A DNA stretch of 64,000 nt from a phage. Location: the sequence record PZ166176.1. The stretch is one strand, 5' to 3'. Of this stretch, positions 724-63,481 are shown piece after piece; within the stretch, counting starts at the first letter, position 1; each line of letters opens with the position of its first letter. The position numbers were made by a program, and so were the translations under genes. Under the pieces are notes generated by a model, which did not search any database, was not told where the DNA came from, and was given only the letters and a program-made list of their open reading frames with translations.

Positions 724-1377
724 CTATACCAGACTTTGTAGGTATTTGTCAAGGGCTTCTTGATCGCCTTGACAAACATAGCAACGGAAGTCTTGAGCCG
801 AAGGTTGTTTATTTTCATCCCAGTCCCAATAAACATTACCCTTATAACGTGAACCAGGAAACTCAAAAGAGGCTGTATGTGTAATGTATCCTGGGCCACC
901 AGTGAAATCACAGAATGAGAATTGGGGGTATGCCGCCTTTACTGCCTCAATAAACCAAGCTTTACGATCTAAAGCTTCATTGATGCTATACGCATGTCTC
1001 TCCATTTCTTCCCACGTTTTCCAGACACTTCTCTCATCAGGAGAAAAGACAAGCCATTCTGGAAGGTATAGAGTGTCATAGTAATCATCATATTCGATCT
1101 CGGAGGCGCACGAAGCTGACTCCTCCAGTTTTGAGTAATCAAAAGCAGAATATACCCACCAACCATCTTCCAGTAACGCTTTGATAGGGACGAAGCCTTT
1201 ATCAGCATATTGATCGAATTGTTTGACACGGTGGCTTGTGCAGTCTTCAAACTCACATTCTAAACGATATGCACCTTTTCGACGAGCCTCAAGACCGTGT
1301 GTACTGAAAATAACAACACTTCCTTCACCATCATTACGATCTACTTGATAAGCAACCACTGGTTTTGAATTTGACAT
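724..1377 (-). CDS. hypothetical protein
   Basis: Track ORF, 217 aa; stop/start abuts next gene. Confidence 0.5.
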   Translation of the reverse strand: MSNSKPVVAYQVDRNDGEGSVVIFSTHGLEARRKGAYRLECEFEDCTSHRVKQFDQYADKGFVPIKALLEDGWWVYSAFDYSKLEESASCASEIEYDDYYDTLYLPEWLVFSPDERSVWKTWEEMERHAYSINEALDRKAWFIEAVKAAYPQFSFCDFTGGPGYITHTASFEFPGSRYKGNVYWDWDENKQPSAQDFRCYVCQGDQEALDKYLQSLV

Positions 1378-2060
1378 TATTTCTCCTTATCTAGAAGATT
1401 GTTAGACAAAAACACTGCACGAGCAAAACCACGTGCGGTTAGTGATCTAAGTTGTTTTGTTTTTGCACTAGCTCCACCTAAGCTTTTCCAACCCCAGAAG
1501 CAGCCTATATGATCTACTGGTTTCTTCACTGGTTGAACAAAACCATTGCCGTGCCAAATACAAGTTTTCTTTGTATACCCATCACGGGTAGGCATTTTAG
1601 GATGAAAGCTTCCTTCCTCTTCAAACAAATACCCACCATACTCATAAGGATCAAAGTAAAAATCGGGTTTACGCCATAAGGTTGAAAGTTTACCTACTGG
1701 GTTCTCAATCATCCAAGGAACATTATATTTGTTACCCAAAGCTTCCACTACACGAATATTAGCTAAAGCTTCATCCAATTCCTCTGTGCTGCGTTCGTGT
1801 TTGCTACCACTACCTGCTAACATAGTGCAAGGTGGAAATCCAAAAATAATATCGGGTTTAGGTATCCCATGATCTTCAGGGTTGAATGTAGAATCTATCC
1901 AGGCATTCACATAGGTTATGTTTGGGTGCTCCATCCTAACCTCGTATTTACCGTGATCCCCTTCATCAGCGTTTACACAAAAACACTTGTGACCTGCTTC
2001 GGCATAACGTAACACCATGATCCCAGATCCGTCAAACATAGACAAAACTGTTTTACTCAT
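1377..2060 (-). CDS. putative SAM-dependent DNA cytosine-C5 methyltransferase-like protein
   Basis: FDGSG (motif I-like), GFPPCT (PC motif IV-like), ENPVG (motif VI-like); start moved to internal ATG (MSKTV) preceded by GGAGGGG; catalytic Gln of PCQ replaced by Thr so function uncertain. Confidence 0.35.
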   Translation of the reverse strand: MSKTVLSMFDGSGIMVLRYAEAGHKCFCVNADEGDHGKYEVRMEHPNITYVNAWIDSTFNPEDHGIPKPDIIFGFPPCTMLAGSGSKHERSTEELDEALANIRVVEALGNKYNVPWMIENPVGKLSTLWRKPDFYFDPYEYGGYLFEEEGSFHPKMPTRDGYTKKTCIWHGNGFVQPVKKPVDHIGCFWGWKSLGGASAKTKQLRSLTARGFARAVFLSNNLLDKEK

Positions 2061-22211: not shown

Positions 22212-23171
22212 TTAGATTCCAATGATAGTTGCTGCTCGTTTATCCTTGGATCTGGTGTTTGCTCTACTACGTGACAAACCTCCGCAAGATTCACAACGAA
22301 TGATATCGAAAGAACTTACCGCAGTGTGGTATTGTTTACCAGTAACAACGTGAACGTGATCACTGCCACAACGAGAACAACGGACCTTCTCATCTGGGTA
22401 ATAAGCGGATAAGTTAGGATGCTGTGGAATCCACGGAAGGATTTTCATATATAAATCACGGAGTGAAACAACATCACCATCATTGTAAATCTGCATACGT
22501 TCAAAAGCATCACGATCACCTTCACAACATGCTTTCCATAAAGGGAACCCCTCGTTATCCAGTTTTTCACTTTCTGTTTCGAAATATGCTCCCATTTCTT
22601 TAAGGGAGTTGGAAGGAAGTGCAAATTGTTTCTTAGCTGCCTTCAATGTATCAACAACTACATAATTAGAAGGAGGAGCCATATCGTGATATGCAAATCG
22701 TTGGTTAATGTATGCACGGTCAAACTTATATCCGTTGTGTGCCACAACTACATCTGCCTCATTCAGAAGGTTCCAAAGATCTTGGCAAAGCTCCCAATCA
22801 TCTGTATGATCAATATCAAAAAGAGGATAAGAAGACAAGTTCTTACCTTCCACTTCACCAGTATACAGGTCAGCAGAAGAGTAAGATAACAAATAACCCC
22901 TACGAATTACTTGATCTGGAGAAATGAAGGCTTTGAATCGACGGAAAGTATATGCAATCTCTGGTGCAGTTTCAACATCAATAATTTTAATAACTGGTTG
23001 TTTCTTTTTAACTGGCTCTTGTTTACTTGCTCCAAATCGTGCAAGGAAATCGTTCACTGTGCTTTTTCTTGTTGGACTACCTAAAACAATTGCTGCAATA
23101 TTACGAGAAGACATACCCTCTGCACTCATACTAAGGATATCTGCTTTCTGCTCTTCTGTTAATCTGCTCAC
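22212..23171 (-). CDS. DnaQ-like 3'-5' exonuclease with N-terminal HTH and C-terminal zinc ribbon
   Basis: Exo motifs IIDVET, AHNGYKFD, YNDGDVVSLRDLY; C-terminal CSRCG...CESCGG. Confidence 0.5.
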   Translation of the reverse strand: MSRLTEEQKADILSMSAEGMSSRNIAAIVLGSPTRKSTVNDFLARFGASKQEPVKKKQPVIKIIDVETAPEIAYTFRRFKAFISPDQVIRRGYLLSYSSADLYTGEVEGKNLSSYPLFDIDHTDDWELCQDLWNLLNEADVVVAHNGYKFDRAYINQRFAYHDMAPPSNYVVVDTLKAAKKQFALPSNSLKEMGAYFETESEKLDNEGFPLWKACCEGDRDAFERMQIYNDGDVVSLRDLYMKILPWIPQHPNLSAYYPDEKVRCSRCGSDHVHVVTGKQYHTAVSSFDIIRCESCGGLSRSRANTRSKDKRAATIIGI

Positions 23172-24286
23172 TCTGCCTCCTGTTGTGAGATGTATGATTG
23201 AAGCATACTCTCAAATGTTGTATCGTCATTATCCCAGCGTTTCATGTATACCAACTGGAAAATTGTTTCTATCCATTCATCTGTTGTCATATGGACTTCT
23301 TCTCCATCCCAAGAAGTAAAATTAACACCATCTGGGAACCACGAGTAGTAAGTATCTTTAACTGTTTGGAAAAGTTCTGCTTGAGTTTTACAAGCTGAAA
23401 GAAGATTAAAACAAGTAATATCTCCGAACTTAATATCAAAATCTTGATAAGGTCGGATACTATCTGTTTTATCTCCCATTAGCATCTGATATGCTAACCA
23501 GTAACTGCCCCAACCTTTAACTTCTTTCTTTTTACCTTTATCTACAATCCATATATCGCCAATAGACTCGTCAATAAGAATTATATCTGGATTTTTAAAT
23601 ACTCCATCCTCTTTGTAGAAATTAAAAAGGATACTAGGAGTATGTAAACTATCTTTATCTATAGACACTACGATATAAGAAAATTTACCCGTCCTTTTAT
23701 AATCTTTATAACCTTGGAAACCATACTTCTCTAACTCATCGTCAGCCTCTATTACAGTAACAACATCACCATTGTGGAACTCCACAAGATAATCTTTGGT
23801 TTCTGAAAGCTGAAGTGGTTTGATATCTAATCGTTCAGATTTATATTCTACAGGCATTTTGAAGGCGTGTCTGAAAGTTTTTCCTACGCCAATAACTCCG
23901 CAATATTTTTCTAAACGTAGATGTTTTAGAATACCTAAGACTTTTGTTTTAGCTGCTTGGAAGGTGTGTCCGATATCTTCTGGCGGGTATTGCTTATCAA
24001 TGATTTCGAACTCTTCCTTTGTGAAGGGACGTTTGTTTTTGGAGGCTCTTTCTGCATTTGTATCTCCTAGCCAACCTCCAATTTTAGTCTTGCTTTTACC
24101 CCAAAACTCTGTCTTATTTTTAAATTCCTTTTGAGCACCTGAAGGGATGTGCTTCGCAATGATTGTTCTTTTCTCTAATGCAGACGCTGCTTGGAAAGCG
24201 ATCTGATCATAATCAATTGCAGCTATTGTTTCTTCGTTGACATATAAATGAAGATCTTCAGGTTTAATTAAAATATAACCGCTAAT
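23168..24286 (-). CDS. T4 RNase H-like 5'-3' exonuclease / flap endonuclease; start non-canonical and uncertain
   Basis: IAAIDYDQIAFQAASAL (cf. T4 RNase H ICLIDFSQIALSTAL) lies upstream of the first ATG (23857) in a stop-free frame; LMGDKTDSIRP matches the FEN GDxSDNIPG block. Confidence 0.55.
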   Translation of the reverse strand: MSGYILIKPEDLHLYVNEETIAAIDYDQIAFQAASALEKRTIIAKHIPSGAQKEFKNKTEFWGKSKTKIGGWLGDTNAERASKNKRPFTKEEFEIIDKQYPPEDIGHTFQAAKTKVLGILKHLRLEKYCGVIGVGKTFRHAFKMPVEYKSERLDIKPLQLSETKDYLVEFHNGDVVTVIEADDELEKYGFQGYKDYKRTGKFSYIVVSIDKDSLHTPSILFNFYKEDGVFKNPDIILIDESIGDIWIVDKGKKKEVKGWGSYWLAYQMLMGDKTDSIRPYQDFDIKFGDITCFNLLSACKTQAELFQTVKDTYYSWFPDGVNFTSWDGEEVHMTTDEWIETIFQLVYMKRWDNDDTTFESMLQSYISQQEAE

Positions 24287-24298
24287 ATTTCCCCCTAA

Positions 24299-24508
24299 TT
24301 ATTCATCGTCATCCTCTGTTGAGAATGTTTTAGTATACGGACATTGACGACTTTTCGGGATTGCTATAACTTCATCTTGGTTAGCGTTAGAATAGTAGCA
24401 ATATTTTGTGTTGCCATTAACTTCAGAATCAGACAAGATTAAAGTAATTTGACCTGCTGCTACTGTGAAACTAAAAGCTAAAAGAACGACTGTCAGAATC
24501 TTTTTCAT
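24299..24508 (-). CDS. small secreted protein (signal peptide)
   Basis: MKKILTVVLLAFSFTVAAG hydrophobic leader followed by a Cys-containing mature region. Confidence 0.5.
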   Translation of the reverse strand: MKKILTVVLLAFSFTVAAGQITLILSDSEVNGNTKYCYYSNANQDEVIAIPKSRQCPYTKTFSTEDDDE

Positions 24509-24580
24509 AACGCCTCCTAAAAAGCCTACCTCATTAAGTAGGTAGGCATAATATCATAACTAATCCCGCAAGTCAAGAAC

Positions 24581-25459
24581 TTATTTAAGGATTGTTGCTT
24601 TGGTTAAATCTTCCATCAGACCTCGAATCTCATTGAAGCACAGAAGGACTGAAGCTTCAATACTACCTTCTTCGTCTGCAAAATATTTCGGAAAACGTAG
24701 TTTAGAAAGTTTAAACTCTTTATCCACTACAAAATCTACAACACCATCATATTCAAGACCGATTGCAACCACATCTTTACCATCTTCTTTTAGTTCGACA
24801 GCTTTAGACTCGTATAGGGATTCTTTACTCCAAACAACAACGCCCTCGCTATCCTCCATTTTGATATAATTTCCGAGAGTAATACGATCTGCTTCGTGAT
24901 TCTCCAGCAATTCACCAAAACCTTTTACAATAGCTTCTTCGTGCACACTAAAACCTACCGAAGGGAAAGTCCCCAGAACGGAACGGAGGAAAGAAGTAAT
25001 CTCTTCTGCAACCTTTTTACTTCCATTAAGAACATAAAGAAGATTCGTAGTTTTATCTAAGACAACATAGTTAAAGAAATCTTCAGGTTCTGTTTCAGGC
25101 AATAGTGCAAATTCAATATCTTCCTTCATTGCTTTGACTACTTCTTTATCGACATAAAACTCTTTACCTTCGCTCTCCATGTCCTGACGCATTTCTTCTA
25201 GACGTTCATTCAGAATACGTTTAACTTTCTTTTTATCTACCTTCTTCACAGATTGACCTACATTAAGTAGTTCAAGATCTGAAAACTCTTTTACAAATTT
25301 AGAGTCATCTTCGAAACGAACAAGACCGATAGTATGTGACTGGGAGCCTTCTGCTGTTACAAATTCCAGAGGAATATCTGTAATGCTGTTAAGGGATGCT
25401 ACAGAAGCATTGTCACCAACAACCATAGGCAGAGCGGATTTAAAAGATTTTACAAACAT
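24581..25459 (-). CDS. RdgC-like recombination-associated protein
   Basis: NLLYVLNGSKKVAEEITSFLRSVLGTFPSV parallels RdgC [31 protein letters not shown]; similar length. Confidence 0.45.
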   Translation of the reverse strand: MFVKSFKSALPMVVGDNASVASLNSITDIPLEFVTAEGSQSHTIGLVRFEDDSKFVKEFSDLELLNVGQSVKKVDKKKVKRILNERLEEMRQDMESEGKEFYVDKEVVKAMKEDIEFALLPETEPEDFFNYVVLDKTTNLLYVLNGSKKVAEEITSFLRSVLGTFPSVGFSVHEEAIVKGFGELLENHEADRITLGNYIKMEDSEGVVVWSKESLYESKAVELKEDGKDVVAIGLEYDGVVDFVVDKEFKLSKLRFPKYFADEEGSIEASVLLCFNEIRGLMEDLTKATILK

Positions 25460-35005: not shown

Positions 35006-35080
35006 GGCCCTGTAGCTCAATGGGAGAGCTGTCGGCTCATAACCGATAGGTAGCTGGATCGAAACCAGCCAGGGCCACCA
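35006..35080 (+). tRNA. tRNA with CAT anticodon (resembles tRNA-Ile2 / elongator Met)
   Basis: Hand-folded cloverleaf: acceptor GGCCCTG/CAGGGCC, anticodon loop CTCATAA, T-loop ATCGAAA, encoded CCA. Confidence 0.7.
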
Positions 35081-35082
35081 AC

Positions 35083-35157
35083 GTCTTTATGGTGTAATGG
35101 ATAGCACAGGAGTCTTCTAAACTCTTAGTCAAGGTTCGATTCCTTGTAAAGACACCA
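35083..35157 (+). tRNA. tRNA-Arg (TCT)
   Basis: Acceptor GTCTTTA/TAAAGAC, anticodon loop CTTCTAA, T-arm CAAGG-TTCGATT-CCTTG, CCA. Confidence 0.7.
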
Positions 35158-35158
35158 G

Positions 35159-35342
35159 AACATTTTAACATGAATTAGCTCAAGTGATTTGAACCCACTA
35201 CTGATCATGGTGGCAGAGAATGAGGCAAGTATGTCAGACATTATAAACAAAGGCCACGGTTATATTAGAAGACATAAATGCTCGAAGAGCACCGTTCGTT
35301 GAGAACGGGGGTTGGTGGAGTCACCATTCATGGTAAAATGTT
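35159..35342 (+). ncRNA. structured RNA of about 185 nt following tRNA-Arg
   Basis: 5' AACATTTTAACATGAAT pairs with 3' ATTCATGGTAAAATGTT (one mismatch); no ORF. Confidence 0.35.
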
Positions 35343-35353
35343 TTAAAAAACTA

Positions 35354-35384
35354 TTGACAACTAACATTATTTTATGTTAGATTA
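35354..35384 (+). promoter_or_regulatory. sigma70-like promoter (ctaTTGACAa ... TGtTAGATT)
   Basis: TTGACA and extended -10-like element upstream of tRNA-Ser. Confidence 0.45.
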
Positions 35385-35391
35385 TAAGTAT

Positions 35392-35482
35392 GGAAGGGCA
35401 AATCGACGTGGCGACGAAAACGGTCTTGAAAACCGCCGAGCTTGAAAGAGCCTTGGGAGTTCGACTCTCCCTCCTTCCGCCA
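35392..35482 (+). tRNA. tRNA-Ser (TGA), long variable arm
   Basis: Acceptor GGAAGGG/TCCTTCC, anticodon loop CTTGAAA, long variable arm, T-arm GGGAG-TTCGACT-CTCCC, G73-CCA; D-arm atypical. Confidence 0.55.
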
Positions 35483-35486
35483 GATT

Positions 35487-35572
35487 GGTAGATTGGTGAA
35501 ATGGTAGCCACGACAGTTTGCTAAACTGTAGTCGGAAACGGCGTGTAGGTTCGAGTCCTACATCTACCGCCA
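35487..35572 (+). tRNA. tRNA-Ser (GCT), long variable arm
   Basis: Acceptor GGTAGAT/ATCTACC, anticodon stem ACAGT/ACTGT loop TTGCTAA, variable arm AGTCGGAAACGGCGT, G73-CCA. Confidence 0.7.
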
Positions 35573-35578
35573 AATTAA

Positions 35579-35664
35579 GATGAGTTGGCTGAATGGTTTA
35601 AGCGGCGGACTGTTAATCCGTGTTCGAAAGAACGATATAGGTTCAAATCCTATACTCATCGCCA
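35579..35664 (+). tRNA. class II (long variable arm) tRNA with GTT (Asn) anticodon; identity ambiguous
   Basis: Acceptor GATGAGT/ACTCATC (7 bp), anticodon stem GCGGA/TCCGT loop CTGTTAA, variable arm GTTCGAAAGAACGAT with GTTC/GAAC stem, T-arm ATAGG-TTCAAAT-CCTAT, G73-CCA. Confidence 0.55.
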
Positions 35665-35671
35665 GAATTAT

Positions 35672-44085: not shown

Positions 44086-45087
44086 ATGCCAGCAGTAATT
44101 TTAGATCAGGTTGTAGATTTCAGCCCTATGATCGAACTTCAGGATTCCCCTGATACACTGATTGCCAGCCTGAATCTGTTCAGTGTTGACTATCATTCAA
44201 CTACCGCTATTGAAATCGGTAAAGAAAAAGCTGAAGATGCTCTGATCTCCGCTCGTGAGCGTGGTGGTGAGCGTAACTTCCTGAGCATGAAAAATCCAGA
44301 ACTGAAAGCGTTCCGCATTCCGTTCTTCCCTCTGGATAAAAACATCAAAGCTCAAGATATCCAATCTTTCCGTAGCTTTGCAATGGCAGGAATCAATGAC
44401 TCTCTGCGCACAGACGCTGAAGTTGTTAACCGCTATATGTCCCAGATTCTACGTGACGTAGCAAAAACCAAAGAGAAAATCTTTGCAGAAGCAGTTATGG
44501 GTCGTGCCTATAACGGCGTAGGTGGTGCAGCTAACTCTGCATACAACTGGTATACCGAATGGGGTGCTACCCAGAAATCTGTTGCTGTAGACTTTGCTTC
44601 TACCACTATTTCTCCAGCAGCCACTATCGAGAAAGAAGCTCGTGCTTACATCATCGATACTAAACAAGATGGCTCTACCGCTACTCGTATCGTAGCTCTG
44701 TGTTCTCGTGAATTTTTCGCATCTCTGGTTAACTCTCCATTTGTTCGCCAGGCGTATCAGTATTTCCAGGGAACTCCTAACCTTCTGCGTGACCGCCTTA
44801 GCGGTAACATGGATGTTCAGGTGTTCGAATGGAACGGTGTAACTTACATTGAAGATATCCACGGTAACATCCCTGCTGGTGAAGCATATGTTCTGCCTAT
44901 GGGTATCGAAGGTATGTTCCAGGCGCACTACGCTCCTGCGGATACTCCAGAACTGGCTAACACCCAGGCTCGTGAACTGTATACCTTCATGATCAGCCAG
45001 CACCGCACTATTCAGCTTCAGTCTGAATTCTCGCTGCTCGCAGTTAACACCCGTCCAGAACTGGTAGTTAAACTGACTACGGCTTAA
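44086..45087 (+). CDS. major capsid protein (lambda gpE-like family)
   Basis: 333 aa; C-terminal LANTQARELYTF parallels lambda gpE LGNTQARGLRTY; followed by strong terminator. Confidence 0.75.
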   Translation: MPAVILDQVVDFSPMIELQDSPDTLIASLNLFSVDYHSTTAIEIGKEKAEDALISARERGGERNFLSMKNPELKAFRIPFFPLDKNIKAQDIQSFRSFAMAGINDSLRTDAEVVNRYMSQILRDVAKTKEKIFAEAVMGRAYNGVGGAANSAYNWYTEWGATQKSVAVDFASTTISPAATIEKEARAYIIDTKQDGSTATRIVALCSREFFASLVNSPFVRQAYQYFQGTPNLLRDRLSGNMDVQVFEWNGVTYIEDIHGNIPAGEAYVLPMGIEGMFQAHYAPADTPELANTQARELYTFMISQHRTIQLQSEFSLLAVNTRPELVVKLTTA

Positions 45088-45108
45088 TAGAACTCTGTTA
45101 AGATTAGA

Positions 45109-45140
45109 GGCTCGTCCGTGATGGGCGAGCCTTTTCTGTT
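45109..45140 (+). terminator. rho-independent terminator after major capsid gene
   Basis: GGCTCGTCC-gtgat-GGGCGAGCC hairpin followed by TTTTCTGTTT. Confidence 0.65.
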
Positions 45141-45171
45141 TACAATAAGAGTTTACAACGAGGAGATTGAT

Positions 45172-45516
45172 ATGTCAAACCCAGAATTGAAACGTTACTT
45201 TAGTTATCACGAAATGATTCGTGATTTCGAATCGCTTTCACCACTGATCGATGCTGATAAAACATTAGTATCTGCGCCACCAATGTCTTTCTATCTGAAA
45301 GATGGTCGTATTGCATTAGGTGGAAACTTCATCCACTTCCTCACACGTTTGAGAGAAGAAACAGGTATTCTTGTGCATCCTTTTGCAAGTGAAGAACACA
45401 TGGGTTACTATCTTGTAAGTTACGAAGACTATGCACCTGTAAAAATCAAAGAAGAAGTTTTAAAAGTAGAAGCGGTAGACACTCCAGCTAAAAAACGTTC
45501 CCTTCGTAAAAAATAA
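45172..45516 (+). CDS. hypothetical head-associated protein
   Basis: ATG (MSNPEL) after GAGGAG, downstream of terminator. Confidence 0.45.
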   Translation: MSNPELKRYFSYHEMIRDFESLSPLIDADKTLVSAPPMSFYLKDGRIALGGNFIHFLTRLREETGILVHPFASEEHMGYYLVSYEDYAPVKIKEEVLKVEAVDTPAKKRSLRKK

Positions 45517-61534: not shown

Positions 61535-63481
61535 ATGTCAACTACAATTACTAATTTACCCGAAACATCAAAAGTTAATGGTTCTGATTACCTAGTTTTA
61601 GACCAATCTGATAAGACCGTTAAAAGCACAGTTTCTAACTTTCTTGCTGACACTGGGGTGGTTTTAGCCACCCAGTTGAAAGATACAAATGGAGCAGATT
61701 TAATACAATCCTCAAATGGTAATACTGTTCAGGAAGAGTTGAATAACAATCTTCTTAATGATCGTGAACAGTGGTGTCGTAGTCTTGCTGAGGCAGGGTT
61801 AACCCTTGTCAACGGTAGCTTTGAAGAAGGCGCTACATTAAATAATAAGACCGATGCTGTTTGGTATATTGCAGGCGGTCAGTGTTATTCATGGGATGGT
61901 GCACTACCTAAAGAAGTTCCAAATGGCTCAACTCCAGAAACATCTGGTGGTGTTGGTCTGGGTGCGTGGGTTAGTGTTGGTGATGCATCGTTGCGCACTG
62001 AACTTTCCTCTTTATCAGGGGCTAATCTTGTTGGGTATAGCGTTTCCATGAGATATAATGAAGAGACTGTTGGGTGGATGTTAGAAAATCTCACCGACAG
62101 AGCTTTATCATCAAGTGATTTCCCTGGAGACGATGCCGGAGAACAAATAAATAACGGTCTTGATTTTTTACGCTCCCAGAATGAGAAATATAGACAAGGG
62201 GGAACATTAAACCTACCCAGAGAAACACTGAATGTATCGACACCGATTACACTCGACAGAACTCCAAGCGGTGCGCCAGATGAAAATGATGAATATACAA
62301 TATCTGGCTCTGGAAAAGGAGGGACAGTACTGATAGCGGGTAATAGCTTCCCACCAGATAAAGCGGTTTTAACAACTAACTCTGCTAATGGTAATGCGGT
62401 TCAAGGTTTTAAATTAAAAGACTTTTCCATCAGGGGTGGCAAAAACGGACTTCGTATTGAAACCGCATCAAGAAGTATAATAGACAGCATCAAAGTTTCG
62501 GGATCAGGTTCGGACGGTATTTATGTAGGTAATAGCTGGGTCAATCTTTATAGTCAGGTGCTTGTAGATTCAAGCGGTGGTAATGGAATTACGTTCGATA
62601 ATAGTCTACAAAAAACAAGCACAACAGTACTTTCAGGATACCAGTTAAAAAACAAGGGGTCAGGTTGGGATTTTGGTTTTATGAACTATTCAGTGGCAAT
62701 TGCCACTGCTTCAGATCAGAACTCACAACATGGCTATAAAATATCAAGGTCGGAAGGATTTGTTCTTATATCTCCGGGAGCGGAAAGCAACGGGGGTGCT
62801 GGTATATTAGCTGAGGCATCAACATCTTTAGGGGAAAACAAGAGCGTCCTAATTCAAGGAGCTTTTTGCCACAATAATAATAAGATAGGTACTTACGCGA
62901 ATCTTTTATATGCGGTGAGTACTGCTAACACAATAAACCGTGTAAAAATAACAGATAGCACAGCACATTCCAGCCCTGTAGGTTCTCCAGATGTTGTTGC
63001 TGATGGGAACGAATGCGTTGTCACAATAGATAACTGCGTACTACCTAACGGCTGGGAATCCAGAAATGGTGGATATATTGACTGGGTTCATCATACCCTA
63101 TATGTACAGAAACCAGGAATCACAGGGGCAACAGCCATATGCAACTTAAGAGGAACTCAGGGGCACGGTAGAAATGAAGCTTCTGCTTCTGATAGTTTTG
63201 CTGGGGAAGTAACCATAGTAGCAAGTCCATTAGCGCCTTCAACAGCGACAAGACGACTTGCTATCTATAAACTTTTTATTTGCGTAGCAGCGGATACCGG
63301 CGTTCAATGCGAAGTGATAAAACAATTGGGTTACGTATCTGGAAATGTTCCAGGTTCGCCAAGTTTCACATGGAGCATCGGTTCATCTCATGAATTGATA
63401 GCAACCCCAATAGGGTCTACAGCCGGAACGTTCTATTTTGAAATCACAACGGATTCGCAAGTTGTAGCCCTCAAAAGATAA
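61535..63481 (+). CDS. tail fibre / tailspike with parallel beta-helix-like repeats
   Basis: Repetitive Gly/Ser/Asn-rich rungs (GSGSDGIYVGNS, GGNGITFDNS). Confidence 0.45.
   Translation: MSTTITNLPETSKVNGSDYLVLDQSDKTVKSTVSNFLADTGVVLATQLKDTNGADLIQSSNGNTVQEELNNNLLNDREQWCRSLAEAGLTLVNGSFEEGATLNNKTDAVWYIAGGQCYSWDGALPKEVPNGSTPETSGGVGLGAWVSVGDASLRTELSSLSGANLVGYSVSMRYNEETVGWMLENLTDRALSSSDFPGDDAGEQINNGLDFLRSQNEKYRQGGTLNLPRETLNVSTPITLDRTPSGAPDENDEYTISGSGKGGTVLIAGNSFPPDKAVLTTNSANGNAVQGFKLKDFSIRGGKNGLRIETASRSIIDSIKVSGSGSDGIYVGNSWVNLYSQVLVDSSGGNGITFDNSLQKTSTTVLSGYQLKNKGSGWDFGFMNYSVAIATASDQNSQHGYKISRSEGFVLISPGAESNGGAGILAEASTSLGENKSVLIQGAFCHNNNKIGTYANLLYAVSTANTINRVKITDSTAHSSPVGSPDVVADGNECVVTIDNCVLPNGWESRNGGYIDWVHHTLYVQKPGITGATAICNLRGTQGHGRNEASASDSFAGEVTIVASPLAPSTATRRLAIYKLFICVAADTGVQCEVIKQLGYVSGNVPGSPSFTWSIGSSHELIATPIGSTAGTFYFEITTDSQVVALKR

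Follow-up and report, generated by a model that had tools for sequence, protein, structure and literature searches.

The subject of this study is a gene on the minus strand of a 64,000-nucleotide stretch of phage DNA (sequence record PZ166176.1; the whole stretch is referred to as the window), which encodes a 5'-3' exonuclease of the flap endonuclease (FEN) family and whose conserved N-terminal part lies ahead of the first ATG, GTG, or TTG codon of its reading frame. Very probably, this gene yields a 372-residue FEN protein whose translation begins at an AUU codon (positions 24286..24284; Table 1), and a weak start has been maintained at this position throughout a clade of related phages. The ATT-started reading frame as such is already known: the record of phage ESCO13 (KX552041.2; AQM50955.1 / YP_009786567.1) contains an identical coding sequence (CDS) of 372 amino acids that begins at exactly this ATT and is provided with a ribosome-binding site feature. 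What is new is the clade-wide maintenance of AUU, AUC, AUA, or CUG as the start codon behind a strong Shine-Dalgarno (SD) sequence.

The open frame and its N-terminal coding stretch

The FEN gene is preceded by an open reading frame (ORF) of 69 amino acids, the TAA stop codon of which (24301..24299) lies in the FEN frame. Beyond this TAA, the frame stays open for 376 codons up to the TGA at 23170..23168, and the first ATG, GTG, or TTG within it is an ATG at 23857..23855, 147 codons past the TAA. The open stretch ahead of this ATG encodes the sequence ...NEETIAAIDYDQIAFQAASALEKR..., while the nucleotides following the TAA read TT-AGGGGGA-AAT-ATT-AGC-GGT-TAT..., with the SD-like AGGGGGA located at 24296..24290 and the ATT at 24286..24284. 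A preliminary description of the window had pointed to these features, namely the shared frame, the 147 stop-free codons ahead of the ATG, the lack of any in-frame ATG, GTG, or TTG among them, and the AGGGGGA motif followed by an in-frame ATT; each of them is present in the sequence. On this strand, 5.8% of the trinucleotides are stops and 5.6% are canonical starts, values that give probabilities of about 1.6e-4 for a stop-free run of 147 codons and of about 2.2e-4 for 147 codons without a canonical start. Because these probabilities are low, chance is an unlikely cause of the open, start-free stretch. With the next two candidates inspected, the FEN gene is the only real gene in the 64-kb window that possesses a long 5' stretch free of canonical starts. 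The two look-alike stretches (61885..62400 and 44449..45174, both on the minus strand) run antisense to plus-strand ORFs of 648 and 333 amino acids and are not genes.

The stretch ahead of the first canonical start codon is coding. A tblastn search with the 376-codon translation matched 1,213 phage records, 901 of which cover at least 80% of the query, and the alignments of homologues from Justusliebigvirus, Vequintavirinae (rV5-, CR3-, KB57-, and phiTE-like), PAK_P1-like Pseudomonas phages, ICP1, and others begin at residues 1-20. Homologues retrieved with phmmer likewise align from N-terminal residues 1-20, and the family PHROG 107 ("exonuclease") matches residues 14-371 (E 1e-55). For the N-terminal 142 codons, comparison with relatives gave proportions of nonsynonymous differences (pN) of 0.16-0.34 against proportions of synonymous differences (pS) of 0.71-0.90, the synonymous sites being saturated; we measured selection as pN versus pS since this saturation left the ratio of the corresponding substitution rates (dN/dS) mostly incalculable. 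The N-terminal stretch is under purifying selection across more than 50% protein divergence. In an alignment of 65 sequences, D25 and D27, which lie in the IDYDQ block, reach at least 90% conservation, and E180, D182, D183, D210, D212, D272, and D275 are invariant. The N-terminal stretch (23858..24283) encodes beta1 with D25/D27, alpha1, an inserted hairpin/helix region, and the beta-strands 93-100 and 127-137. These homologue alignments, the pN and pS values, and the core structural elements contained in the stretch bear out the earlier proposal that it must be translated.

For the 372-residue protein, AlphaFold2 gave a model with a mean predicted local distance difference test (pLDDT) score of 96.2, and a Foldseek search with this model retrieved the T5 D15 FEN and E. 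coli ExoIX with a probability of 1.0. The predicted structure adopts a PIN-like FEN fold, which assigns the product, on the strength of its modeled fold, to the FEN-family 5'-3' exonucleases. Three beta-strands of the model (16-25, ending in D25; 93-100; 127-137) are situated upstream of Met144, the residue encoded by the ATG at 23857..23855; the 229-residue product annotated from this codon would be missing much of the FEN core. In comparison with phage FEN proteins and 5'-3' exonucleases such as T5 D15 and T4 RNase H, about 55 additional residues are inserted in the modeled protein after beta1/alpha1 and ahead of the core strand that follows. Comparisons by sequence alone were weak. The window protein has no significant match to Pfam PF02739, for which its relatives score 26-28 bits (cut-off 34.3) in alignments that begin at about residue 85, and a profile search against PDB sequences gave no match. 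The preliminary description had claimed that the N-terminal block matches T4 RNase H. At the level of sequence this was not confirmed, since an hhalign comparison with T4 RNase H (the sequence used is identical to 1TFR) paired the central motifs only (EADD, DKD/DGD, and GD..D) with a probability of 9%; the relationship in fold, however, stands. The comparisons gave no residue-by-residue match of D25 with T4 D19 or T5 D26, and an Asp counterpart of T5 D68 seems to be absent from the window protein.

These findings bear on the public annotation, according to which translation starts at ATG 23857, yields a 229-residue protein, and leaves the upstream 147 codons as the untranslated remnant of a start-codon mutation. 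This model is given by nearly all GenBank and RefSeq records, and the ATG is indeed the first canonical start in the frame. Yet the 147 codons are free of stops, are under purifying selection, and contain the near-invariant D25/D27; the shortened product would, judging from the model, be devoid of the FEN-core beta-strands 16-25, 93-100, and 127-137; and ATG 23857 has no SD sequence ahead of it. Moreover, the first canonical codon is scattered among relatives over positions 7 to 143, leading to inconsistent truncations, and this scatter accounts for the inconsistent gene models of 229-369 amino acids found in the databases. We therefore regard initiation at ATG 23857 as extremely unlikely.

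Position and turnover of the start codon

Full-length homologues with conventional starts fix the position at which the FEN gene begins. The start regions read GAGGAGTGAGTA-ATG-GGT-TAT-CCC in CR3 (MGYP...), GAGAGGGCTA-GTG-GGA-TAT in KB57, AAGGAGGAGTTA-GTG-GGA-TAC in phiTE, and AGGAGGGTCT-TTG-AGT-AGA-GAA-TAT-CCA in the rV5-like phage CarlMeissner (MSREYP...), compared with AGGGGGAAAT-ATT-AGC-GGT-TAT-ATT in the window, which would be translated as (M)SGYI.... The ATT at 24286..24284 is the positional homologue of these canonical starts and has the same SD spacing. While the Vequintavirinae orthologues of this phage "exonuclease" (rV5, CR3, and PVP-SE1 type; PHROG 107) use ATG, GTG, or TTG, the window gene has ATT. 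In four relatives (L014, L025, L026, and L029; loci of the relatives are given as L numbers and their proteins as P numbers), an in-frame TAA stands directly 5' of an ATC codon (TAGGAGGAG-TAA-ATC-GGT-TAC), and since the stop codon abuts the ATC, the ORF of these relatives cannot begin further upstream. An SD sequence of the (T)AGGAGG or GGAGG type ends 3-5 nt before the start in all 36 start contexts of the relatives; the spacing in the window is 4 nt (AGGGGG-AAAT-ATT). No significant RNA structure was found around the start (z = -0.54). The alignment with homologue starts, the constant SD spacing, and the TAA ahead of ATC in four relatives all point to initiation at ATT 24286..24284, as had been suggested in the preliminary description. 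The proteins P0025, P0027, P0030, and P0032 seemed to start at a conserved internal Met; this was rejected, as the DNA of P0025 (L046) and P0032 (L048/L049) has, nine codons before this Met, an ATT or ATA with its SD sequence, and no SD sequence ahead of the Met itself.

Two further explanations for the missing canonical start were weighed against the start regions of relatives. One of these is recoding, in which stop codon readthrough or a frameshift would fuse the secreted peptide encoded upstream to the FEN protein. In the window, both ORFs are in one frame with a single TAA between them, and a 444-residue "fusion" protein (P0005) is present in the protein collection. The latter, however, is a gene-calling artefact (locus L047:601-1935): the contig has a TAG codon that was translated as Gln. 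Justusliebigvirus and further relatives have the upstream ORF in another frame or separated from the FEN gene by two or three stops (TGA TGA, TAA TAG, TAG..TAA); there is neither a conserved slippery site nor significant local RNA structure, and a signal peptide on a replication nuclease would make no functional sense. The probability that recoding occurs here is, in our judgment, close to nil.

According to the other explanation, an ATG was lost from this genome through an error in sequencing or assembly or through a very recent mutation; only the rarity of ATT starts speaks in its favor. A search with 1.5 kb around the FEN gene found matches in 65 phage records with 95-100% identity, nearly all of them from phAPEC8-like Escherichia phages (genus Phapecoctavirus, Stephanstirmvirinae). 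Over the 64 nt surrounding the start, 54 phage records from independent sequencing show 100% identity, and non-canonical codons likewise occupy the start in the Justusliebigvirus group (62 records with 80-90% identity) and in many lineages from metagenomes. The identical records together with these diverged lineages rule out the sequencing error that the preliminary description had considered, and a lost ATG of whatever origin is virtually impossible.

We collected relatives from IMG/VR, metagenomes, and Logan/ENA assemblies, read the start region of each, and took the distinct 55-nt start context (n = 36) as the unit of the census. Twenty-eight of the 36 contexts are non-canonical, and all of these fall within one clade that spans Phapecoctavirus, Justusliebigvirus, and uncultured relatives. 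ATT is present in 12 contexts (Phapecoctavirus, Justusliebigvirus, L032/L042, L037, L038, L041, L046, L052, L053, and L054/55), ATC in nine (L010, L012, L014, L024-L027, L029, and L031), ATA in six (L015, L028, L030, L036, L048, and L056), and CTG in one (L016). The remaining eight contexts have ATG, GTG, or TTG; seven belong to the outgroup and one to L039 (TTG). In a neighbor-joining tree, the non-canonical starts form a single clade of 27 tips with 50-100% amino acid identity to the window protein. Parsimony on this tree gives ATT as the ancestral codon and at least 10 start-codon changes within the clade, nine of which took place among ATT, ATC, ATA, and CTG and none of which led to ATG or GTG. 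The very close relatives L015 and L016 differ in their start codon (ATA versus CTG), which indicates fast turnover at this site.

Across the clade, and with the sole exception of L039, the start position is restricted to near-cognate codons. The preliminary description had held that an ATG at the equivalent position in related genomes would speak for an error or a recent mutation; we looked for such a codon and found none in the clade. The persistence of a near-cognate start behind a strong SD sequence argues for weak initiation as a selected property: AUU, AUC, AUA, and CUG replace one another while the strong SD sequence stays invariant, a combination not expected of an ordinary Ile codon, and the weak start is therefore likely to be a selected trait. 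Cycling of the start among exactly four near-cognate codons (one TTG lineage aside) would then constitute evolutionary evidence that the weakness of the start is itself under selection. The first 143 codons contain 0-6 in-frame ATG, GTG, or TTG codons in clade members (none in the window) versus 4-9 in the Vequintavirinae orthologues examined. This apparent sparseness could mean that internal starts are avoided where the primary start is weak.

Gene neighborhood, tRNA genes, and database records

The FEN gene is embedded in a string of replication and recombination genes on the minus strand (Table 1). The 69-residue product of the upstream ORF resembles a signal peptide at its N-terminus, contains several Cys residues, and ends in an acidic C-terminus (...TEDDDE). 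In most of the clade, this ORF is conserved in synteny directly ahead of the FEN gene. It is preceded, in the order of the minus strand, by a near-consensus sigma-70 promoter with an upstream TG, by a hairpin followed by a T-run, and by its own SD sequence and ATG. A transcript from this promoter would start within or just before the hairpin, which is labeled as a terminator in the record of phage ASO2A.

Table 1. Features of the FEN locus in the window
Feature	Position	Strand	Remark
RdgC-like protein gene	24581..25459	-	first in the order of the FEN gene string
Sigma-70-like promoter (TTGACT-17-TATTAT)	24576..24548	-	upstream of the 69-aa ORF
Terminator-like hairpin and T-run	24547..24524	-	directly after the promoter, upstream of the 69-aa ORF
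Upstream 69-aa ORF	24299..24508	-	TAA stop at 24301..24299, 12 nt before the ATT
Shine-Dalgarno-like AGGGGGA	24290..24296	-	G-run ends 4 nt before the ATT
Proposed non-canonical start ATT (AUU)	24284..24286	-	aligns with ATG/GTG/TTG of Vequintavirinae homologues
Full-length 5'-3' exonuclease/flap endonuclease (FEN-family) gene	23168..24286	-	372 codons, ATT to TGA
N-terminal 142 codons without in-frame ATG/GTG/TTG	23858..24283	-	absent from most public annotations
Internal Met codon (Met144), ATG	23855..23857	-	start in most GenBank annotations, giving a 229-aa product
FEN stop TGA	23170..23168	-	read from the sequence
DEDD-type "DNA polymerase exonuclease subunit" gene	22212..23171	-	downstream; GTG start overlaps the FEN stop (GTGA)

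Elsewhere in the window, a plus-strand cluster (35006..36710) contains two tRNA(CAU) genes, a tRNA-Ile(GAT) gene, and eight other tRNA genes. One of the tRNA(CAU) genes (36632..36710, plus strand) has an unpaired A1xC72, the acceptor positions 2-6 GCGGG, an A11:T24 pair in the D-stem, and a TTCAAAT T-loop; in comparison with E. coli tRNAfMet, we take these acceptor, D-stem, and T-loop features to be initiator-like. Its anticodon stem (CCAGT/GCTGG) is without three consecutive G:C pairs, the element that is inspected by initiation factor 3 (IF3) and the ribosomal P site.

A phage-encoded tRNA, either the initiator-like tRNA(CAU) or the tRNA-Ile(GAU), might be thought to initiate at the AUH codons, so that the protein would begin with Ile or IF3 proofreading would be escaped. 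The window does encode a tRNA-Ile(GAT) and two tRNA(CAT), one with an unpaired 1:72 position and otherwise initiator-like arms that lacks the G:C triplet in its anticodon stem. This case is purely circumstantial, however, and a CAU anticodon fits AUH no better than that of the host initiator; the tRNA-Ile has a normal, paired 1:72, and the CTG start of L016 would not suit an Ile-tRNA. Initiation by a phage tRNA is thus very unlikely.

The public records describe the FEN gene in discordant ways. Those of phAPEC8, iGC_PHA_EC001, and ASO2A begin the gene at Met144, and the resulting 229-residue form is recorded for more than 385 contigs; Justusliebigvirus records begin it at an internal GTG. The record of Escherichia phage vB_Eco_PATM (L051; OX090893.1) splits the FEN gene: its N-terminal part is listed as an ORF of its own on the opposite strand (1322..1546; "putative exonuclease [ESCO13]") and the remainder as a truncated CDS, an example of how the non-canonical start corrupts annotation. 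The genome announcement of ESCO13 makes no mention of an ATT start, and a literature search, the coverage of which was incomplete, found no discussion of the FEN start codon. A 229-residue or otherwise mangled "exonuclease" is found in well over a hundred genome records of Stephanstirmvirinae and in the protein databases derived from them, and such truncated models mislead functional and structural annotation. Similar phage genes with non-canonical starts are probably under-counted, because standard gene callers cannot find them.

Proposed weak initiation at AUU and comparison with known systems

We propose that the strong SD sequence 4 nt upstream of the AUU would position the ribosome and that the codon is presumably decoded as formylmethionine (fMet) by the host initiator tRNA. 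With the site located 12 nt past the stop codon of the small ORF, de novo initiation and re-initiation could both contribute, as they do at E. coli infC. Selection would favor inefficient, probably IF3-sensitive initiation that holds the nuclease at a low level or places it under conditional control. Measurements in E. coli provide the background for this proposal. In a survey of all 64 codons, the near-cognate codons AUA, AUC, AUU, and CUG initiated at 1-2% of the level of AUG (Hecht et al., bioRxiv 10.1101/063800), and in a separate reporter study AUU and UUG were six- to eight-fold below AUG and GUG (PMC3592434). IF3 selectively inhibits initiation at non-canonical codons (PMC2268962).

Coupling to the upstream ORF might also be the whole story, such that initiation at the AUU would essentially be all termination-reinitiation, FEN synthesis would be slaved to the small ORF, and de novo initiation would be negligible. 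The geometry of the locus is compatible with this view. In every clade member inspected, the upstream stop lies 8-16 nt before the start (distances read by eye; 12 nt in the window), often inside the SD sequence itself (GAA-TAG-GAGG), and this closeness is kept in L046, in which the upstream gene encodes an N6/N4 methyltransferase. At infC, where the arrangement is similar and the AUU follows the upstream stop by 3 nt, re-initiation and de novo initiation contribute about equally (PMC3592434). On the other side, a near-consensus SD sequence at optimal spacing is what de novo initiation requires, and in E. coli re-initiation, too, is sensitive to IF3 and relies on the initiator tRNA (PMC2268962). 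Pure termination-reinitiation is moreover a sub-mechanism of weak AUU initiation and no true alternative to it. Coupling is probably ancestral, because outgroup genes with canonical starts share the same geometry, and on its own it does not account for the choice of the codon. We therefore consider exclusive re-initiation possible but doubtful.

Several observations weigh against initiation at AUU 24286..24284 as a selected weak start. In-frame ATT codons are also present at codons 5 and 7 of the window gene and could add minor starts. The TTG of L039, the sole canonical tip within the clade and one on a long branch, shows that the constraint admits exceptions. That none of about 8-9 third-position changes produced an ATG has a neutral probability of roughly (2/3)^8 = 0.04 and is thus only modestly improbable. 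The stop-to-start geometry shared by outgroup phages with ATG, GTG, or TTG starts means that the coupling invoked above leaves the codon choice unexplained. Finally, the presumed expression level and IF3 dependence are carried over from the E. coli reporter literature.

If translation from the AUU is true, the FEN gene would represent a further natural non-canonical start beside infC and pcnB, both of which begin with AUU and have been reported as the only two confirmed natural cases in E. coli (bioRxiv 10.1101/063800), and it would do so in an E. coli-infecting system with unusually strong comparative support. A tentative and rather improbable extension is that the SD sequence and the weak codon together act as a sensor: FEN synthesis would rise only when the ratio of IF3 to ribosomes or the fidelity of translation drops, or would track translation of the upstream gene, and the nuclease would in this way be timed to a stage of the infection. 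Were this true, the phage would use the logic of infC to read the translational state of its host and could time a nuclease that might be self-damaging or set off defences; the initiator-like tRNA(CAU) at 36632..36710 could then belong to the same adaptation.

The proposed start resembles that of E. coli infC, where an AUU codon likewise stands behind an SD sequence and follows the stop of the preceding gene by a few nucleotides, and where the weak codon is maintained functionally, with IF3 repressing initiation (PMC2268962; PMC3592434; bioRxiv 10.1101/063800). However, the infC product is IF3 itself, which closes an autoregulatory loop, whereas the phage product is a nuclease and any dependence on IF3 would read the state of the host. 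Unlike infC, the phage site also drifts among AUU, AUC, AUA, and CUG. A second parallel is E. coli pcnB, the gene for poly(A) polymerase I, which starts with AUU and encodes, as the FEN gene may also do, a nucleic-acid enzyme potentially harmful in excess; its translation is reportedly limited by the inefficient AUU start (Binns & Masters 2002, as cited in PMC3592434; PMC2939334). In contrast to the phage gene, pcnB is a host chromosomal gene, and those parts of the literature that were consulted describe no clade-wide interchange of near-cognate codons for it. The GTC start of Streptomyces sigR reportedly likewise combines a non-canonical codon with IF3-mediated translational control (PMC5472188), although codon, organism, and protein class all differ from those of the phage FEN gene.

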